Program-made: the position numbers and the translations under genes
Shown: positions 19,181-38,089 of the stretch, one piece after another
How positions within the stretch are numbered: the stretch's first letter is position 1
Layout of the letters: every line of letters starts with the position of its first letter
Assembly (NCBI GenBank): GCA_963700925.1
Contig: OY969553.1
Span: 1,612,459-1,676,458 of the forward strand
Length of the DNA: 64,000 nucleotides
Direction of reading: 5' to 3'
Origin: an uncultured Actinomycetota bacterium
GTDB lineage: Bacteria > Actinomycetota > Actinomycetes > Actinomycetales > CAWJMD01
The notes under the pieces: generated by a model
What the model saw: the letters and a program-made list of their open reading frames with translations, nothing else
What the model was told of the DNA's origin: nothing
The model's database searches: none

Positions 19181-19312
19181 AGCCATGCGCGAAAGCACCC
19201 ACGGGCGGCGGTCGCGGGATGGGCGGCTCGCCCGATGAGACGGGGCCTCTGGTCTTCCTAGCGTTGGGATGTGGGGTCACGGCGACCTCGTCCCGACTCG
19301 CAGGAGGAGACC

Positions 19313-19993
19313 ATGAGCGCATCGAGCATCACCAGGCACGCGTCCCTGCCAACTGACCGGGCACCGCGCATGGTCCGCATCTCGGCGATCGCGGGCATCG
19401 CAGGCCCGGTCCTGTTCACGCTGACCTTCCTTGTGCAGGAAGCATTCCGGCGCGCGGAGTTCGACCCGATCGCCGAACCGGTGAGCGCGCTCGAGGCCGG
19501 CCCGAACGGCTGGGTCCAGCAGGTCAACTTCGTCGTGTGCGGGCTGCTGCTGCTGACGTTCGCCGTCGGGCTCCACCGTGGCCTCGCACCCACCCGGATG
19601 GGGGCTCTGGGCCCAGCCATCCTCGGCGTGGCGTCGACCGGCATGCTGCTCGCCGCTGCGTTCCCGCTGCGCGAGGACGCCGCCGGCGTGACGTACGACC
19701 CGGGCGGCCACTTCGTCAGCGGCGTGACGTTCTTCTTCGGGTCGTCCATCGCCCTGCTCGTGCTGTCGCGTCGCCTCGCGCACGACCCGCGGATGCGCGG
19801 AGTGTCCACCTACACAGCGGTGTGTGGCGTCCTCGCTCTGGTCGGCGTGGTCGTGTTCGTCCGCCTGGTGCTGCCCGACGGTGCACCCCTGCACGACCAC
19901 GCGGGGCTGGCCCAGCGAATGATCATCCTGCTCGTGACGTTCCCCTGCCTGGTCACGATGGCGGTTCGACTGCGGCGCGTCACTCAGTCATGA
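19313..19993 (+). CDS. DUF998-like integral membrane protein
   Basis: Track ORF 19271..19993. ATG 19313 preceded by GGAGGAG. Multiple TM segments, and EPVSALEAGPNGWVQQVNF resembles the DUF998 signature. Confidence 0.6.
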   Translation: MSASSITRHASLPTDRAPRMVRISAIAGIAGPVLFTLTFLVQEAFRRAEFDPIAEPVSALEAGPNGWVQQVNFVVCGLLLLTFAVGLHRGLAPTRMGALGPAILGVASTGMLLAAAFPLREDAAGVTYDPGGHFVSGVTFFFGSSIALLVLSRRLAHDPRMRGVSTYTAVCGVLALVGVVVFVRLVLPDGAPLHDHAGLAQRMIILLVTFPCLVTMAVRLRRVTQS

Positions 19994-20448
19994 CCGACGT
20001 GGGCACGTCGCGGCCTGGGTAGGTAGCGGGGGACGCGCCTCGCGTAGTCCGTTGCCTCGGTGCCGAACTCGGCCGCGAGCTGCTGCTCTTCACGCAGCAC
20101 GGCCCGGTGAACGAGACCGAACGCCGCAGGCCAGGTCGCGATCACCCACGGAGAACGAAGGCCGAGCCCGACACCGAGGTGGACCAGGCTCCAGCCGACG
20201 TACATCGGGTTGCGGGAGTGCGCGTACGAGCCAGTGGTCACGAGGGCATCCGGGTGCTCGATGTCGCCGGAACCTCGCGCCACGACCGCCCAGCCGTTCA
20301 GTGCCACTCCCGCTGCCAGCAAGGGCCAGCCGAGACGCGAGACCCTTGCTGGTAGATGGCTACTGGTGCGGGACTGCAGCACGAGTCCGGCCAGCATGGC
20401 GACCACGTGCTCTGCCGGAAAGGGAAGGCGGGCCCACAACGCCGACAT
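19984..20448 (-). CDS. Isoprenylcysteine carboxyl / phospholipid methyltransferase-family membrane protein
   Basis: 154 aa, with a hydrophobic N-terminus. The motif TGSYAHSRNPMYVG is characteristic of the ICMT/PEMT family. Lies 51 nt downstream of the PLP enzyme gene on the same strand. Confidence 0.75.
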   Translation of the reverse strand: MSALWARLPFPAEHVVAMLAGLVLQSRTSSHLPARVSRLGWPLLAAGVALNGWAVVARGSGDIEHPDALVTTGSYAHSRNPMYVGWSLVHLGVGLGLRSPWVIATWPAAFGLVHRAVLREEQQLAAEFGTEATDYARRVPRYLPRPRRAHVGHD

Positions 20449-20499
20449 GATCAGACGGTAGCGACCCCGCCCGTGCGGCGACGGGTCAGCCTGCGGAGG

Positions 20500-21879
20500 T
20501 CAGCGCTCCTCACACGGTGAGCCGACGACCCGGCCCGCCGGCAGGTCCAGCCATGCCGGCAGCTCGCGCCGATCGTCAACGGGCGCGAACCGGCCATCGA
20601 CGCGGTGGTACCGCAGCGCCGGTCCCTGCTCGACGATCGAACGGATCGCTGCGACCAGCCGGTCGACGTCTTCGCTCGATGACCCGACGCCGAGACTGGC
20701 GCGCACCGCCCCGTCCTCGAGCCCGATGCGGCGCAGCAGCGGGTGCGCGCAGAACTTGCCGTCGCGCACCCCGATGCCGTGCTCGGCGGAGAGGACGGCG
20801 GCTACGAGGCCGGCGTCGAGATCGGCGACGGTGAAGGGGACGACCCCGATCGTCGAACGGCTCTCGACCCAGATGCTGTGCACGCGAACGCCGTCCACCG
20901 TTTTCAAGCCCTCGACGAGACGCTCGCGCAGTGCCGACTCGTGCACCTCGAGAGCACCGTCGGGCAGTGCCTCGATGGCGTCGCACGCCGCCGCGAGCGC
21001 GACCGCGCCGAGCACGTTCGGTGTGCCGGCCTCGTGGCGTGCGGGAGCAGGGGCCCAGACCACGTCGTCGAGGTCGACAGACTGCACAGCCCCGCCGCCC
21101 GCCAGATAGGGCTCCGCCGCGTCGAGCCAGTCGCGGCGACCGACGAGCGCACCCGAGCCGAAGGGTGCGTAGAGCTTGTGGCCCGACAGGGCGAGGTAGT
21201 CGATGTCACTGCCGGACAACGAGATCCGACGGTGAGGTGCGAGCTGAGCGGCATCGACTGCGATGCGCGCCCCGTAGCGGTGCGCCAGCTCGGCGAGCTC
21301 GGCGACGGGCAGCTCCTCCCCCGTGACGTTGGAGGCGCCCGTGACCGCGACCAGTGCGGCGGGTGCCTCCGCGAGCGCGGCCTCGACGGCCGCCAGGGTG
21401 CGCTCGACGGTGCTCGACACCCCGACGACGCGGTGGGCGCCCGCCGTCCACGGAAGGAGGTTGGCGTGGTGCTCGATCTCCAGCACCACCACGTCGCCGG
21501 CCCCTTCAGGCACCGCGCGGGCGAGCAGGTTCAGGGCGTCAGTCGTGTTGCGGACGAGAACCAGCACGTCGTCGTCACGGGCTCCGACGAAGCGCGCCAC
21601 CCGCGCGCGGGCGCCCTCGTAGAGGCGCGAGCTGACCTGGGACGCCCATCCGGCGCCTCGGTGCACCGAGGAGTAGAACGGCAGCGCCTGCTCGACACGG
21701 TCGGCGACCACGCGCAGGGCCGGCGCGCTGGCTGCGTAGTCGAGGTTGGCGTACTTGGCGGTCCCCCCGGTCGCCAGCGGCACGCGGAGGTCTCCTCCCA
21801 CCACCTCAGCGAGGGGTGGAACCGGCGCGCCAGAGGAGGCAGTCGAAGGAGTGCGGTGGAGTTCGGTAGCCGTGCTCAT
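20500..21879 (-). CDS. Aminotransferase class V-fold PLP-dependent enzyme (cysteine desulfurase/lyase-like)
   Basis: Track ORF 20500..21921; ATG 21879 (MSTATELH) with GAGGAC upstream. PLP-lysine context LALSGHKLYAPFGSGALVG, plus HHANLLPW and HEAGTPNVLG. Confidence 0.85.
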   Translation of the reverse strand: MSTATELHRTPSTASSGAPVPPLAEVVGGDLRVPLATGGTAKYANLDYAASAPALRVVADRVEQALPFYSSVHRGAGWASQVSSRLYEGARARVARFVGARDDDVLVLVRNTTDALNLLARAVPEGAGDVVVLEIEHHANLLPWTAGAHRVVGVSSTVERTLAAVEAALAEAPAALVAVTGASNVTGEELPVAELAELAHRYGARIAVDAAQLAPHRRISLSGSDIDYLALSGHKLYAPFGSGALVGRRDWLDAAEPYLAGGGAVQSVDLDDVVWAPAPARHEAGTPNVLGAVALAAACDAIEALPDGALEVHESALRERLVEGLKTVDGVRVHSIWVESRSTIGVVPFTVADLDAGLVAAVLSAEHGIGVRDGKFCAHPLLRRIGLEDGAVRASLGVGSSSEDVDRLVAAIRSIVEQGPALRYHRVDGRFAPVDDRRELPAWLDLPAGRVVGSPCEER

Positions 21880-21909
21880 CGTGGAAGTCCTCGTGGTCCG
21901 GGACCCCCT

Positions 21910-22024
21910 CGGGGTCCGCACTTGCCACGCCCCTACGGCGCGACCAGGTCGTCACCCGGGGCACCCCACCGCGGAGGAGGGTTGCCGGCCAGCGAGCCGG
22001 GGCTTGACGCTGGCGCTCATGACC
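21910..22024 (-). promoter_or_regulatory. SAM-IV riboswitch (5' leader of the PLP-enzyme / methyltransferase operon)
   Basis: The reverse-strand RNA is GGUCAUGAGCGCCAGCGUCAAGCCCCGGCUCGCUGGCCGGCAACCCUCCUCCGCGGUGGGGUGCCCCGGGUGACGACCUGGUC..GGCAAGUGCGGACC. It matches, nearly base for base, the actinobacterial SAM-IV consensus as I remember it. It ends about 30 nt before ATG 21879 and is followed by the hairpin GGACCCC-GAG-GGGGUCC next to the SD. The 3' boundary is approximate. Confidence 0.8.
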
Positions 22025-22102
22025 TGGTTCCAGGGTACGGACGCGTGCGTCGAAGTCCACCGGCTGAACGACATGTCTCACCGACCGGGACGGCAGCCGG
22101 AA

Positions 22103-22723
22103 CTAATCGGTGCGAAGCAGCCACCGCGACAGCGCGGCCAGGTCGCTGATGCGCTGGTCGCCGTCCAGTCCCTTCAGTGCCGCAGTCCTCGCACCCGCGG
22201 CGCGTCCCGCCTGGAGTCCGACCTCGGCGTCCTCGACGACGAGGCAGTGCGCCGGCGGCACGTCCAGCAGCTCAGCGGCACGCAGGTAGCCCTCCGGATC
22301 CGGCTTGCCTGCGCGGACGTCTTCGAACGTGACGAGGACGGGAGGGTCGATCGAGACGGCACCGAGCCGCGCCTTCGCCAGACGCATGTCGGCGCTGGTC
22401 ACGACCGCCCACGGCAGCCGCAGCCGGGAGAGGGTCTCCAGCAGCTCGTGCGCGCCGCGGGTCGGCACGACATCGGACAGGTCGTCGTACTGCAGCGTCA
22501 GCTGCCTGGCGGCCGACGCATCGACGGCCTCGGCGTCCAGCATCGGCAGCAGCCGGCGAACGGTGCTGTGTGCCGGACTGCCGTGGGCGATCGCCAGGGC
22601 GGCTTCGGCATCGACCTGGTACTCGTCCGCCCACGACCGCCAGGCCCGCTCCACAGCCGCGTCGGAGTCGACCAGCGTGCCGTCCATGTCGAGCAGTACG
22701 GCGTCGATCTTCCACCCGTCCAC
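22103..22723 (-). CDS. HAD-superfamily hydrolase (phosphatase/beta-phosphoglucomutase-like)
   Basis: Track ORF 22103..22855; GTG 22723 is preceded by GGAGG. Motifs DAVLLDMDGTLVDSD (HAD motif I), VVTSA, GKPDPEGY and VVEDAEVG. Confidence 0.85.
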   Translation of the reverse strand: MDGWKIDAVLLDMDGTLVDSDAAVERAWRSWADEYQVDAEAALAIAHGSPAHSTVRRLLPMLDAEAVDASAARQLTLQYDDLSDVVPTRGAHELLETLSRLRLPWAVVTSADMRLAKARLGAVSIDPPVLVTFEDVRAGKPDPEGYLRAAELLDVPPAHCLVVEDAEVGLQAGRAAGARTAALKGLDGDQRISDLAALSRWLLRTD

Positions 22724-23956: not shown

Positions 23957-24016
23957 GCGACGCGTGACGCCCGAGGTCGGGTGGCGGCAGTCGTCACCCG
24001 GGCGCACCATCGGCCC

Positions 24017-25069
24017 ATGCCCCGACTGCGCCGCACCTCGCCCAGCCAGCCCGGCTGGTCACGCCGTCGCCAGGGCAAGGGCTTCGTCTACCTGAGCTCA
24101 GACGGTGACCGCCTGAACGACGCGGAGATCGCGCGCTGCCGAGCGCTGGTGATCCCGCCGGCGTGGGAGCAGGTCTGGATCTGCCCGTGGCCGAACGGCC
24201 ACCTGCAGGCCGTCGGCACCGACGACGCCGGACGGCGGCAGTACCTGTACCACCCCGAGTGGAGGGTGCAGCGCGACAAGGCCAAGCACGACCGGGTGCT
24301 CACGGTGGCGGCGCGACTGCCGCGGGCACGCAAGCAGGTGGCCGAGCACCTCGGCCTGGACGGGATGCCGCGCGAGAAGACGCTCGCCACGGCGTTCCGG
24401 CTGCTCGACCTGGGCTTCTTCCGCATCGGTGGCGAGTCGTACGCCGAGCAGTACGGCAGCTACGGGCTGGCGACGATCGGCAAGGAGCACGTCCGCCTCG
24501 AAGGCGATGACGTGGTCTTCGAGTACACCGCCAAGTCGGGCCAGGAGCGCTACGTGGCGCTCGCCGACGAGGACGTCCTGGCGGCCGTGAGCACGCTCAA
24601 GCGCCGGCGCGGAGGAGGCGACCGCCTGCTCGCTTACCGCAACGGCACCAGGTGGCGTGCCGTCGACAGCGACGACATCAACGAGTACGTGAAGGAGGTC
24701 GTCGGCGGAGAGGTGTCCGCGAAGGACTTCCGCACGTGGCACGGGACCGTCCTCGCCGCCGTCGCCCTCGCAGTGTCCACCGAGAGCGCTACGTCGAAAA
24801 CCGCTCGCCGCCGGGCGATCTCGAGGGCGATGACGGAGGTCTCGGAGTACCTCGGCAACACCCCGGCGGTGTGCCGGTCGAGCTACGTCGACCCGCGGGT
24901 GGTCGACCTGTTCGAGGACGGCACCACCGTCGCCCACGCCTTGCGCCGTCTCGGTGAGGACACCGCGGTCGGGCAGCCCGCGACGCACGGACCCATGGAG
25001 CGCGCGGTGCTCGCGATGCTGCGGCGACCCCCGAAGGCTGCCGAGCGCGCCGCACGCCGCAAGACCTGA
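24017..25069 (+). CDS. DNA topoisomerase IB (bacterial, poxvirus-like)
   Basis: Track ORF 23981..25069; ATG 24017 (MPRLRRTSP). Motifs IPPAWEQVWICP, GTDDAGRRQYLYHP, SAKDFRTWHGT, and the catalytic-Tyr context YLGNTPAVCRSSYVDP. Confidence 0.85.
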   Translation: MPRLRRTSPSQPGWSRRRQGKGFVYLSSDGDRLNDAEIARCRALVIPPAWEQVWICPWPNGHLQAVGTDDAGRRQYLYHPEWRVQRDKAKHDRVLTVAARLPRARKQVAEHLGLDGMPREKTLATAFRLLDLGFFRIGGESYAEQYGSYGLATIGKEHVRLEGDDVVFEYTAKSGQERYVALADEDVLAAVSTLKRRRGGGDRLLAYRNGTRWRAVDSDDINEYVKEVVGGEVSAKDFRTWHGTVLAAVALAVSTESATSKTARRRAISRAMTEVSEYLGNTPAVCRSSYVDPRVVDLFEDGTTVAHALRRLGEDTAVGQPATHGPMERAVLAMLRRPPKAAERAARRKT

Positions 25070-29299: not shown

Positions 29300-31043
29300 C
29301 GCCATCGGCCCGTGCTGCCGAGAGGCAGGCATCGGGCAGGTCGAACCACCGCAGGCTTTCGAACTCGTCCGAAACCCCTTGCGGCCGTAGGTCTTCCGCG
29401 CCGTCCCCCGCCACGTAGCGAGCGGTCGCCATCAGGCGTCGAGCTTCGACCAGGTACTCCGGCAGGCTCGTGAGCGGCGCCCGGTGGTGTTCACGCGGGT
29501 AGCGGAGATGGCCGCCGGTGTCGTACCCGAGGTCGGAGAGGCGCAGGGGCGGTTCGATGGGCCCGTCGCGGTGCCGCCAGAGGCCGCTCTGGACGTCGAA
29601 CCTGTAGTCGCGCAGCAGCCTCCAGCCGTGGTCGGCAACGAGGTGGACGACCTCGACGACGTACCGGAACACCGGCTCGGAGATGAAGTAGTTGAAGTTC
29701 ACGCGCACCCAGCCGGGCTTGATTCCTTCACAGCCGTCCTCGATCTCGCGCTCGAACCGCCGCGAGTGCTCGAGGTCGATGCCGAGGAGGCGGTGGCCGT
29801 ACGGCCCGGCGCAGGAGCAGCCTCCTCGCGACTGGATGCCGAACAGGTCGTTGAGCAGTGCGACGACGAAGTTGTGGTGCAGGTACCGACCTCCGGGCGC
29901 CCGGACGACGAACGAGACGATCGACAGCCGCTCCGCATCGAGCCTGCCGAGGATCTGGATGCGGGGGTTGTTCTGCCACGACGCGACCGCCCGCTGCAGG
30001 AAGTCGTCCTCGTGAGCCCGGATGGTGTCGACCCCGATGGCGTCCTTGAGCTGGAACACAAGACCGGCGCGGATCGAGCCGATGATCTCCGGCGTGCCAC
30101 CCTCCTCGCGGTGGACCGGGTCGTCGAGGTAGCGGTGCTCCGTCTGGTTCACATAGGTCACCGTGCCGCCGCCGACGACCGCAGGCACGCTGTTGCGCAA
30201 GAGATCTCGCTGCACGACCAGTACGCCGGGCGTTCCCGGGCCGCCGATGAACTTGTGCGGCGAGATGAACACGGCGTCCTTCTGCGCGAGGCGGTCTCCG
30301 TCCGGCATCATCTCGATCGTGACGTAGGGGGCGGCGGCGGCGAAGTCCCAGAACGAGAGCGCGCCGTAGCGATGGAGCAGCGTGGTGATCCTGGCTGTCT
30401 CGGCCATGATGCCCGTGACGTTCGACGCCGCCGAGAACGAGCCGATCAGCATGGGCCGGTGGGCGAACCGCTGCAGCTCGGCTTCGAGCGCCTCCGCGTC
30501 GATGCTGCCCTCACTGCTCTCGGGGATGACGACGACGTCGGCGATGGACTCCCTCCACGGCAGCTCGTTGCTGTGGTGCTCGAACGGCCCGATGAAGACT
30601 ACGGGACGCTCGTCCGCCGGAATCTGTTGGGAGAGACCGTATTTCAAGTCGAGCTCGCGTGGAAGTCGCAAGTTGAGGATGTTCACCAGCTTGTCGACCG
30701 CTCCGGTGCTGCCCGAACCGCAGAAGATCACGCAGGTGTCGTCGTCACCTCCGACGGCGTCGCGGATGATGCGGCGGGCGTCCTCCCGGAGCCGGGTCGT
30801 CTGAAGGCCGGTTCCCGAGCTTTCGGTGTGCGTGTTCGCGTAGCGGGGCAGTACCTCGCCGCGGATGAAGTCCTCGATGAAGCTCAGCGACCGGCCCGAC
30901 GCGGTGTAGTCGGCGTAGGTGACCCGGCGCGCCCCGTACGGGCCGACCATCACCTGGTCGTCACCGATCACCGAGTTGCGGATGGCTCGCAGCAGCGGGG
31001 TTGCTGGCGGTGCCGTCGACCGAGCCACGCCGGAGGAGGCCAT
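29289..31043 (-). CDS. Aminotransferase class V-fold PLP-dependent enzyme, long form (584 aa)
   Basis: Motifs YANTHTESSGTG, FEHHSNELPW, PLP-lysine context FISPHKFIGGPGTPGVLVV, and GGCSCAGPYGH. Confidence 0.8.
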   Translation of the reverse strand: MASSGVARSTAPPATPLLRAIRNSVIGDDQVMVGPYGARRVTYADYTASGRSLSFIEDFIRGEVLPRYANTHTESSGTGLQTTRLREDARRIIRDAVGGDDDTCVIFCGSGSTGAVDKLVNILNLRLPRELDLKYGLSQQIPADERPVVFIGPFEHHSNELPWRESIADVVVIPESSEGSIDAEALEAELQRFAHRPMLIGSFSAASNVTGIMAETARITTLLHRYGALSFWDFAAAAPYVTIEMMPDGDRLAQKDAVFISPHKFIGGPGTPGVLVVQRDLLRNSVPAVVGGGTVTYVNQTEHRYLDDPVHREEGGTPEIIGSIRAGLVFQLKDAIGVDTIRAHEDDFLQRAVASWQNNPRIQILGRLDAERLSIVSFVVRAPGGRYLHHNFVVALLNDLFGIQSRGGCSCAGPYGHRLLGIDLEHSRRFEREIEDGCEGIKPGWVRVNFNYFISEPVFRYVVEVVHLVADHGWRLLRDYRFDVQSGLWRHRDGPIEPPLRLSDLGYDTGGHLRYPREHHRAPLTSLPEYLVEARRLMATARYVAGDGAEDLRPQGVSDEFESLRWFDLPDACLSAARADGVRS

Positions 31044-37814: not shown

Positions 37815-37887
37815 GCCCCCATCGTCTAGCGGCCTAGGACTCCGCCCTTTCAAGGCGGCAGCGCCGGTTCGAATCCGGTTGGGGGTA
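37815..37887 (+). tRNA. tRNA-Glu (anticodon TTC)
   Basis: Cloverleaf read by eye: acceptor GCCCCCA/TGGGGGT, anticodon arm CCGCC-CTTTCAA-GGCGG, T arm GCCGG-TTCGAAT-CCGGT. Confidence 0.9.
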
Positions 37888-37914
37888 CGCATCACCTGGT
37901 CTTGCCACCAGCAA

Positions 37915-37988
37915 GGCCCCGTAGCGCAGTTGGTTAGCGCGCCGCCCTGTCACGGCGGAGGTCGCGGGTTCGAGTCCCGTCGGGGTCG
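37915..37988 (+). tRNA. tRNA-Asp (anticodon GTC)
   Basis: Acceptor GGCCCCG/CGGGGTC, anticodon arm CCGCC-CTGTCAC-GGCGG, T arm GCGGG-TTCGAGT-CCCGT. Confidence 0.9.
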
Positions 37989-38016
37989 CTCAGCGAGCAG
38001 CAGTCGGGCTCGATCG

Positions 38017-38089
38017 GGCCAGATAGCTCAGTTGGTAGAGCGTCCGACTGAAAATCGGAAGGTCGGCGGTTCGACCCCGCCTCTGGCCA
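38017..38089 (+). tRNA. tRNA-Phe (anticodon GAA), CCA encoded at 38090-38092
   Basis: Acceptor GGCCAGA/TCTGGCC, anticodon arm TCCGA-CTGAAAA-TCGGA, T arm GGCGG-TTCGACC-CCGCC. Confidence 0.9.

Follow-up and report, generated by a model that had tools for sequence, protein, structure and literature searches.

The stretch analysed here (the window) comprises 64,000 nucleotides (nt) of contig OY969553.1 from an uncultured Actinomycetota bacterium. On its reverse strand, a leader RNA with an S-adenosylmethionine (SAM) riboswitch of the SAM-IV class precedes the gene for P0001, a class-V pyridoxal-5'-phosphate (PLP) enzyme, and this gene is followed by that for P0002, a small membrane methyltransferase. 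The features of the locus are given below from 5' to 3', with their basis in brackets; SD denotes the Shine-Dalgarno sequence and PK a pseudoknot.

22032..22059 (-): promoter-like element, TGGACT (22059-22054), 16-nt spacer, TACCCT (22037-22032) (sequence reading, inference)
21913..22024 (-): SAM-IV riboswitch aptamer with P1, P2a/b, P3, P5, PK-1 and PK-2 (Rfam RF00634)
21915..21919 (-): 3' strand of PK-2, GCGGA, pairing with UCCGC of the P3 loop, its GGA being common to the next hairpin (complementarity)
21901..21917 (-): hairpin A (anti-anti-SD : anti-SD), GGACCCC, loop GAG, GGGGUCC (predicted -13.5 kcal/mol)
21880..21911 (-): hairpin B, GGGGGUCC(CG) (21908-21899) pairing with (CG)A-GGACUUCC (21893-21883) (ViennaRNA minimum free energy and partition function)
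20500..21879 (-): P0001, class-V PLP enzyme and SufS paralogue of 459 amino acids (aa) (Pfam, NCBIfam, PDB and fold matches, residue conservation, AlphaFold2 (AF2) model)
20449..20499 (-): intergenic gap of 51 nt (scan and folding)
19984..20448 (-): P0002, small membrane methyltransferase of the PEMT/ICMT superfamily, 154 aa (Pfam PEMT, 36.4 bits)

Judged by its sequence, the segment 21913-22024 is a canonical SAM-IV riboswitch, and nothing in the aptamer is unusual. The initial annotation had proposed a SAM-IV leader at this site, and the covariance-model search bears it out: RF00634 matches the reverse strand over the full model (positions 1-116) with 106.4 bits (E 1.4e-18), the gathering score being 38, and P5 contains only two non-canonical pairs. 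PK-1, formed by the P2b loop with J3/1 (CCCGG:CCGGG), and PK-2, formed by the P3 loop with the 3' tail (UCCGC:GCGGA), are each complementary at five of five positions, in the topology described for SAM-IV by cryo-electron microscopy (PMC6890682). With its end 33 nt ahead of the ATG of P0001 (21879) on the same strand, the aptamer occupies a 5'-leader position.

Orthologous loci were taken as the best 80 of more than 514 P0001 relatives found by a back-translated scan of GTDB species representatives (55-85% identity). Their hosts include Kineosporia, Nocardia, Rhodococcus, Gordonia, Arthrobacter, Nocardioides, Pseudonocardia, Actinopolymorpha, Microlunatus, Patulibacter and many metagenome-assembled genomes (MAGs). 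Four to five pairs of PK-2 are kept in 79/79 of the leaders.

The leader appears to have its own promoter. The TACCCT box of the promoter-like element ends 7 nt before the first G of the aptamer, and orthologous leaders carry T(T/G)GAC(A)-like boxes at the equivalent site. A TANNNT motif lies 7-10 nt 5' of the aptamer in 28/76 leaders, versus 0/76 in a control window. A strict scan of 19700-22300 for sigma-70 promoters and terminators returned no promoter, and no terminator on the riboswitch strand.

P0001 starts at ATG 21879 and ends at 20500. Its description in the initial annotation as a cysteine-desulfurase-like class-V PLP enzyme behind the SAM-IV leader agrees with a Pfam match of residues 45-408 to Aminotran_5 (PF00266; E 1e-82). 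The protein nevertheless scores below the NCBIfam SufS and CsdA cut-offs (TIGR01979, 286 versus 475 bits), and a bona fide SufS of 537 bits is encoded elsewhere in the genome (C1:4322584-4323852); P0001 is therefore regarded as a paralogue and not as SufS itself. The AF2 model (pLDDT 86) adopts the SufS fold, and Foldseek ranks only SufS-type desulfurases at the top, proteins of about 405-414 residues (PDB identity 30-37%) that lack the C-terminal extension of P0001. This extension was initially put at about 70 aa. The PDB matches, the AF2 model and the Pfam span set it at about 42-45 aa instead (residues ~417-459), comprising in the model an ordered beta-hairpin (424-433) and then a disordered tail.

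The PLP lysine K235 (SGHKLYAPFG), the loop cysteine C377 (RDGxFCAHP, in P0001 RDGKFCAHP), R438 and C456 are invariant in 31 diverse orthologues. The tail of P0001 ends in a penultimate region with Pro455-Cys456, and this cysteine is found in 95% of 81 sequences. The SufS motif RxGHHCA reads RDGKFCA in P0001. Neighbour clustering over the 80 loci revealed no SufE/SufU/CsdE-type acceptor or other conserved partner gene near the P0001 orthologues. Another class-V PLP gene lies in the window at ~29790-30854 (-); it scores 121.8 bits with TIGR01979, has no riboswitch and is apparently unrelated to the SAM-IV unit.

The initial annotation regarded the PLP enzyme as an unusual cargo for a SAM riboswitch, a view that the genome comparisons contradict. 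Rfam SAM-IV was located directly upstream, with matching strand, in 19/20 diverse orthologous loci, and an nhmmer profile built from the Rfam hits placed it upstream in 78/80 loci, the exceptions being L042 and L057. The reverse survey took 150 genomes drawn evenly from the class, of which 54 contain 80 SAM-IV elements; one unpublished genome (G006) was excluded from all counts. A P0001-like gene (E <= 1e-80) occurs in 24 genomes of this sample besides the organism's own, and in 20 of the 24 a same-strand SAM-IV element is found 50-300 nt upstream of it. The P0001 family, which is widespread in actinobacteria, provides the first gene after 21/80 elements, the window included. For the other 58 elements, the first downstream open reading frame (ORF) encodes a MetY-like Cys_Met_Meta_PP protein 17 times, a MetX-like alpha/beta hydrolase 8 times (9 when the organism's own is counted) and a family-3 solute-binding protein 4 times, the remainder being scattered. 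In the class sample, SAM-IV is thus followed by the SufS paralogue more often than by any other first gene. In genus g34 (7.5-9.2 Mb genomes) the sole SAM-IV found precedes a P0001 homologue (50-54% identity) in all five genomes sampled.

Both kinds of cargo are present in the organism itself. A whole-genome search with RF00634 recovered the window match and one further SAM-IV in the 4.65-Mb genome (C1:440138-440254, 110.6 bits), directly 5' of the gene for MetX homoserine O-acetyltransferase; the genome thus holds the classic MetX cargo and the SufS-paralogue cargo behind SAM-IV. The pairing of SAM-IV with a class-V PLP gene is already tabulated for Streptomyces. In S. lividans, SAM-IV precedes SLIV_26975, labelled 'cysteine desulfurase', with a mapped transcription start site (PMC8079986), and in S. 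clavuligerus a premature transcript is seen at the SAM-IV in front of CRV15_21540, the gene of a class-V PLP enzyme (PMC8269248). For cg1478, the SAM-IV gene of C. glutamicum, a literature search returned unrelated papers only. Reviews tend to describe SAM-IV as a regulator of metXY (PMC4239095), and such summaries probably account for the surprise at the cargo in the initial annotation.

Two loci of these surveys deserve separate mention. At G059:C8:1956-2291, two SAM-IV elements stand back to back on opposite strands, ~100 nt apart, and one of them faces an orthologue of the PLP enzyme. A contig labelled Sporosarcina, a low-GC firmicute (L071, JADHDY010000006.1), carries an Arthrobacter-like SAM-IV/PLP locus, probably through assembly contamination or mislabelling.

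The region between aptamer and start codon could fold in two ways. The GC hairpin that was initially described as abutting the SD is present as hairpin A, with 7 GC-rich base pairs (21917-21901) just 5' of the SD GAGGA (21892-21888), which is separated from the ATG by an 8-nt spacer. Hairpin B, predicted at -17.0 kcal/mol and lengthened by two outer pairs (C21911-G21880 and G21910-C21881), buries this SD. The two hairpins are mutually exclusive in the ViennaRNA predictions.

Related leaders point to a shared arrangement. For 70-72 of 75 orthologous leaders, the GGA of the PK-2 3' strand is predicted to be paired in a hairpin further downstream, and the 3' arm of the hairpin terminates in GUCCC in 47 leaders. 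Pairing of this arm is stronger with the real SD region (-7.1 kcal/mol) than with a shuffled SD (-5.3 kcal/mol). When the PK-2 strand was blocked in silico, the predicted accessibility of the SD went down in 36 leaders, up in 3 and was unchanged in 35. A conserved relay, from the PK-2 3' strand through the hairpin to the anti-SD arm, is predicted to be common to these leaders.

Control could proceed as follows. With SAM bound, PK-2 would hold the 3' tail GCGGA, and the overlapping hairpin A would be deprived of its GGA pairs. The pyrimidine-ending 3' arm of hairpin A, once freed, could then pair with the SD region as hairpin B, and translation initiation would be blocked. At low SAM, hairpin A would form first during transcription and the SD would remain open. 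Probably, then, a standard OFF switch of the SAM-IV class, driven by a promoter of its own, controls here one conserved gene, that of a type-II (SufS-like) cysteine-desulfurase paralogue.

Several points weigh against this interpretation. Taken alone, the tail already favours hairpin B at equilibrium whether or not the PK-2 strand is blocked, so the switch must rely on the order of folding or on the aptamer as a whole. The SD-accessibility test left 35/75 leaders unchanged, and the compared loci and leaders are kin, so that all such counts overstate independence. The S. clavuligerus data suggest an effect at the transcript level, not a translational one alone (PMC8269248). Without a visible terminator in the 51-nt gap, P0002 may share the mRNA of the PLP gene. 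Finally, cysteine dioxygenase genes 3' of the PLP gene in three loci hint at cysteine sulfinate chemistry.

A reading in which SAM-IV acts chiefly at the transcript level, by premature or Rho-dependent termination or by mRNA decay after a translation block, is rather unlikely. In its favour, at the S. clavuligerus orthologue a premature transcription unit ends at the SAM-IV leader, and the drop in read count is among the strongest reported (PMC8269248). Against it, no U tract follows hairpin A or B in the window, where the terminator scan was empty on this strand, and the potential of the hairpin 3' arm to pair with the SD is widespread among the leaders. The transcript-level mode and SD sequestration are, moreover, not mutually exclusive.

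As to the function of the gated enzyme, the best guess is that low SAM turns on P0001 as a paralogue of the cysteine desulfurases that carries its own persulfide-accepting tail. The cysteine of the C-terminal tail could take the persulfide in cis, standing in for a separate acceptor, and the enzyme would most likely move cysteine sulfur to homocysteine/methionine synthesis when SAM runs low. The MetM/MetO thiocarboxylate route (GapMind 2026) was considered as a possible sink for this sulfur. In Vibrionales, the conserved members of the SAM-responsive MetJ regulon include a cysteine desulfurase gene, csd (PMC4239095). A more specific version, offered tentatively and with the balance of expectation against it, is a self-sufficient desulfurase in which C456 takes the persulfide from C377 and gives the sulfur to homocysteine synthesis; the recurrent, non-homologous methyltransferase neighbours of three lineages may then mark an added thiol-methylation. 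If true, this would represent a riboswitch-controlled cysteine-to-methionine sulfur shunt in actinobacteria and would account for the commonest SAM-IV cargo.

P0001 could instead perform chemistry other than that of a persulfide desulfurase, as a cysteine sulfinate desulfinase, a cystine or cystathionine C-S lyase, or a selenocysteine lyase. This seems doubtful, although the sub-cut-off score against every NCBIfam SufS/CsdA model and the replacement of HH by K-F in the loop motif speak for it. So does the presence of type-I cysteine dioxygenase genes (CDO_I by Pfam) just 3' of the PLP gene on the same strand at L009:4479-5024 and L015:4607-5224; the third case, an ORF at L017:4555-4923, clusters with these two by BLAST only. 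Cysteine dioxygenase and a desulfinase together would make a cysteine-to-sulfite route. On the other hand, C377 and C456 are invariant, and plain lyase or desulfinase chemistry would need neither; the best structural matches are all SufS-type desulfurases; and SAM-OFF control suits the supply of methionine better than the disposal of cysteine. A literature search found no papers joining 'SAM-IV' with 'selenocysteine lyase'.

The second gene was said in the initial annotation to follow the PLP gene by 51 nt and to encode an ICMT-family membrane methyltransferase. The spacing is as described (20448-19984, start ATG 20448), the gene shows a coding-type GC pattern, and the protein has hydrophobic segments. 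The family assignment stands in part: P0002 passes the PEMT cut-off (PF04191, 36.4 versus 25 bits, profile positions 32-103 of 105) and misses that of ICMT (PF04140, 21.4 versus 24 bits). The genome encodes four PEMT paralogues, P0002 included, and P0002 gives the most truncated match of the four. Identification of P0002 as the methanethiol S-methyltransferase MddA (NF045656) was considered and rejected, the score being 18 bits against a cut-off of 270.

P0002 is probably a local, lineage-specific and incidental neighbour of the conserved unit, to judge from genome comparison. By tblastn, homologues of P0002, or of the HAD and DUF998 neighbours described below, were found within 3 kb at none of the 80 orthologous loci. 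Its best hits in 60 genomes of the same order (34-42% identity) are located elsewhere, and no homologue was found in the same-genus genome among them. In that genome a DUF1801 gene comes after the SAM-IV/PLP unit (81% identity) and a type IB topoisomerase gene flanks the unit; the neighbourhood has therefore been rearranged. Counting this genome, P0002 has no homologue beside any of 83 orthologous loci. Neighbour clustering over the 80 loci showed nothing beyond lineage-specific synteny. The 51-nt gap contains no detectable intrinsic terminator or sigma-70-like promoter and folds no better than shuffled sequences (z-score -0.06). A search of sequencing runs for co-transcription gave no RNA run with the sequence, only DNA runs from soil and permafrost metagenomes, with small shares.

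The initial annotation had gone further and proposed that the PLP enzyme and the membrane methyltransferase constitute a SAM-tuned two-gene operon of an uncharacterised sulfur/methyl-transfer pathway, in which, for example, a thiol is released and then methylated. The two genes do share a strand and are separated by a short gap devoid of a predicted terminator or promoter, and P0002 has the weak NCBIfam match to MddA, at only 18 of the 270 bits required. Residual support comes from other lineages. A same-strand ORF follows the PLP gene at 42 loci, and in nine of these it encodes a class-I SAM methyltransferase (Methyltransf_11/25): L003:4493-5251, a MAG close to the organism of the window, and eight Micrococcaceae loci (L023, L032, L046, L053, L054, L075, L076 and L077). 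With the window included, some methyltransferase thus stands 3' of the PLP gene in 3 of ~23 independent downstream contexts, against a low Methyltransf_11 background in the organism's own genome (27 genes, ~0.6%); this enrichment was estimated after the data had been seen and is only suggestive. The recurring enzymes, however, are unrelated to P0002 and not homologous between lineages either, the two groups sharing only ~31% identity, and their gaps to the PLP gene measure at least 10-211 nt. A P0002 homologue accompanies 0/80 orthologous PLP genes, its best match in the order is ~40% identical and lies elsewhere, and none was found in the same-genus genome. It would make poor regulatory sense to switch on a SAM-consuming enzyme under SAM scarcity, and SD sequestration at the first cistron would give no direct control of a second cistron 51 nt away. 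The two-gene pathway is accordingly very improbable.

Further genes surround the unit. Upstream, the gene of a HAD phosphatase ends 78 nt short of the aptamer, and a DUF998 gene (19271-19993, +) converges on P0002, their 3' ends overlapping by 10 nt (19984-19993). The type IB topoisomerase gene of the window (23981-25069, +) lies ~2 kb from the riboswitch, and that of the same-genus genome (L093:3142-4197) is immediately beside it; the HAD gene and the adjacent genes therefore look like local insertions. Three transfer RNA genes are clustered at 37815-38089 (+) of the window (Rfam, 57.9-75.8 bits).

The finding itself is routine: a textbook riboswitch class stands before its most frequent cargo. 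Its interest lies in that cargo. SAM-IV is described in reviews as a metX/metY regulator, and in the present sample the largest single group of elements controls a biochemically uncharacterised SufS paralogue with a cysteine tail. Knowing the reaction of this SAM-gated paralogue would close a gap in the picture of sulfur and methionine metabolism in actinobacteria, and database entries labelled, for example, "cysteine desulfurase (thiamine metabolism)" would be put right.

Compared with the SAM-IV reference (RF00634; Weinberg et al. 2008; PMC6890682), the leader of the window is alike in all helices, in both pseudoknots, in its actinobacterial host and in its site near the SD. No difference was noted in the aptamer, while the details of the hairpin A/B platform are given here by prediction. 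The units of SLIV_26975 and CRV15_21540 in Streptomyces have the same riboswitch class before a class-V PLP gene, as likened here by annotation. They are single-gene units, whereas in the window a PEMT-type methyltransferase gene comes after the PLP gene; at the orthologous loci examined, the PLP gene has no such neighbour behind it.

P0002 shares with the PEMT/ICMT superfamily (PF04191, PF04140) the C-terminal SAM-binding motifs (NPMY.G and EE..L...FG..Y) and the hydrophobic segments, but it is short and falls far under the equivalog cut-offs of MddA and isoprenylcysteine methyltransferase.

The closest enzymatic comparison is with SufS and CsdA, represented by SufS of M. tuberculosis (8ODQ/9DDD) and of E. 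coli, with which P0001 has in common the fold (TM-score 0.72-0.77), 30-37% identity, the PLP lysine and the loop cysteine. It differs from them in scoring under the family cut-offs, in lying outside a suf operon, in having K-F for the HH of RxGHHCA, and in an extra C-terminal extension of ~45 aa that ends in a conserved cysteine and is accompanied by no adjacent SufE/SufU-type acceptor. In regulation, the SAM gating of P0001 finds its parallel in the csd gene of the MetJ regulon of Vibrionales.

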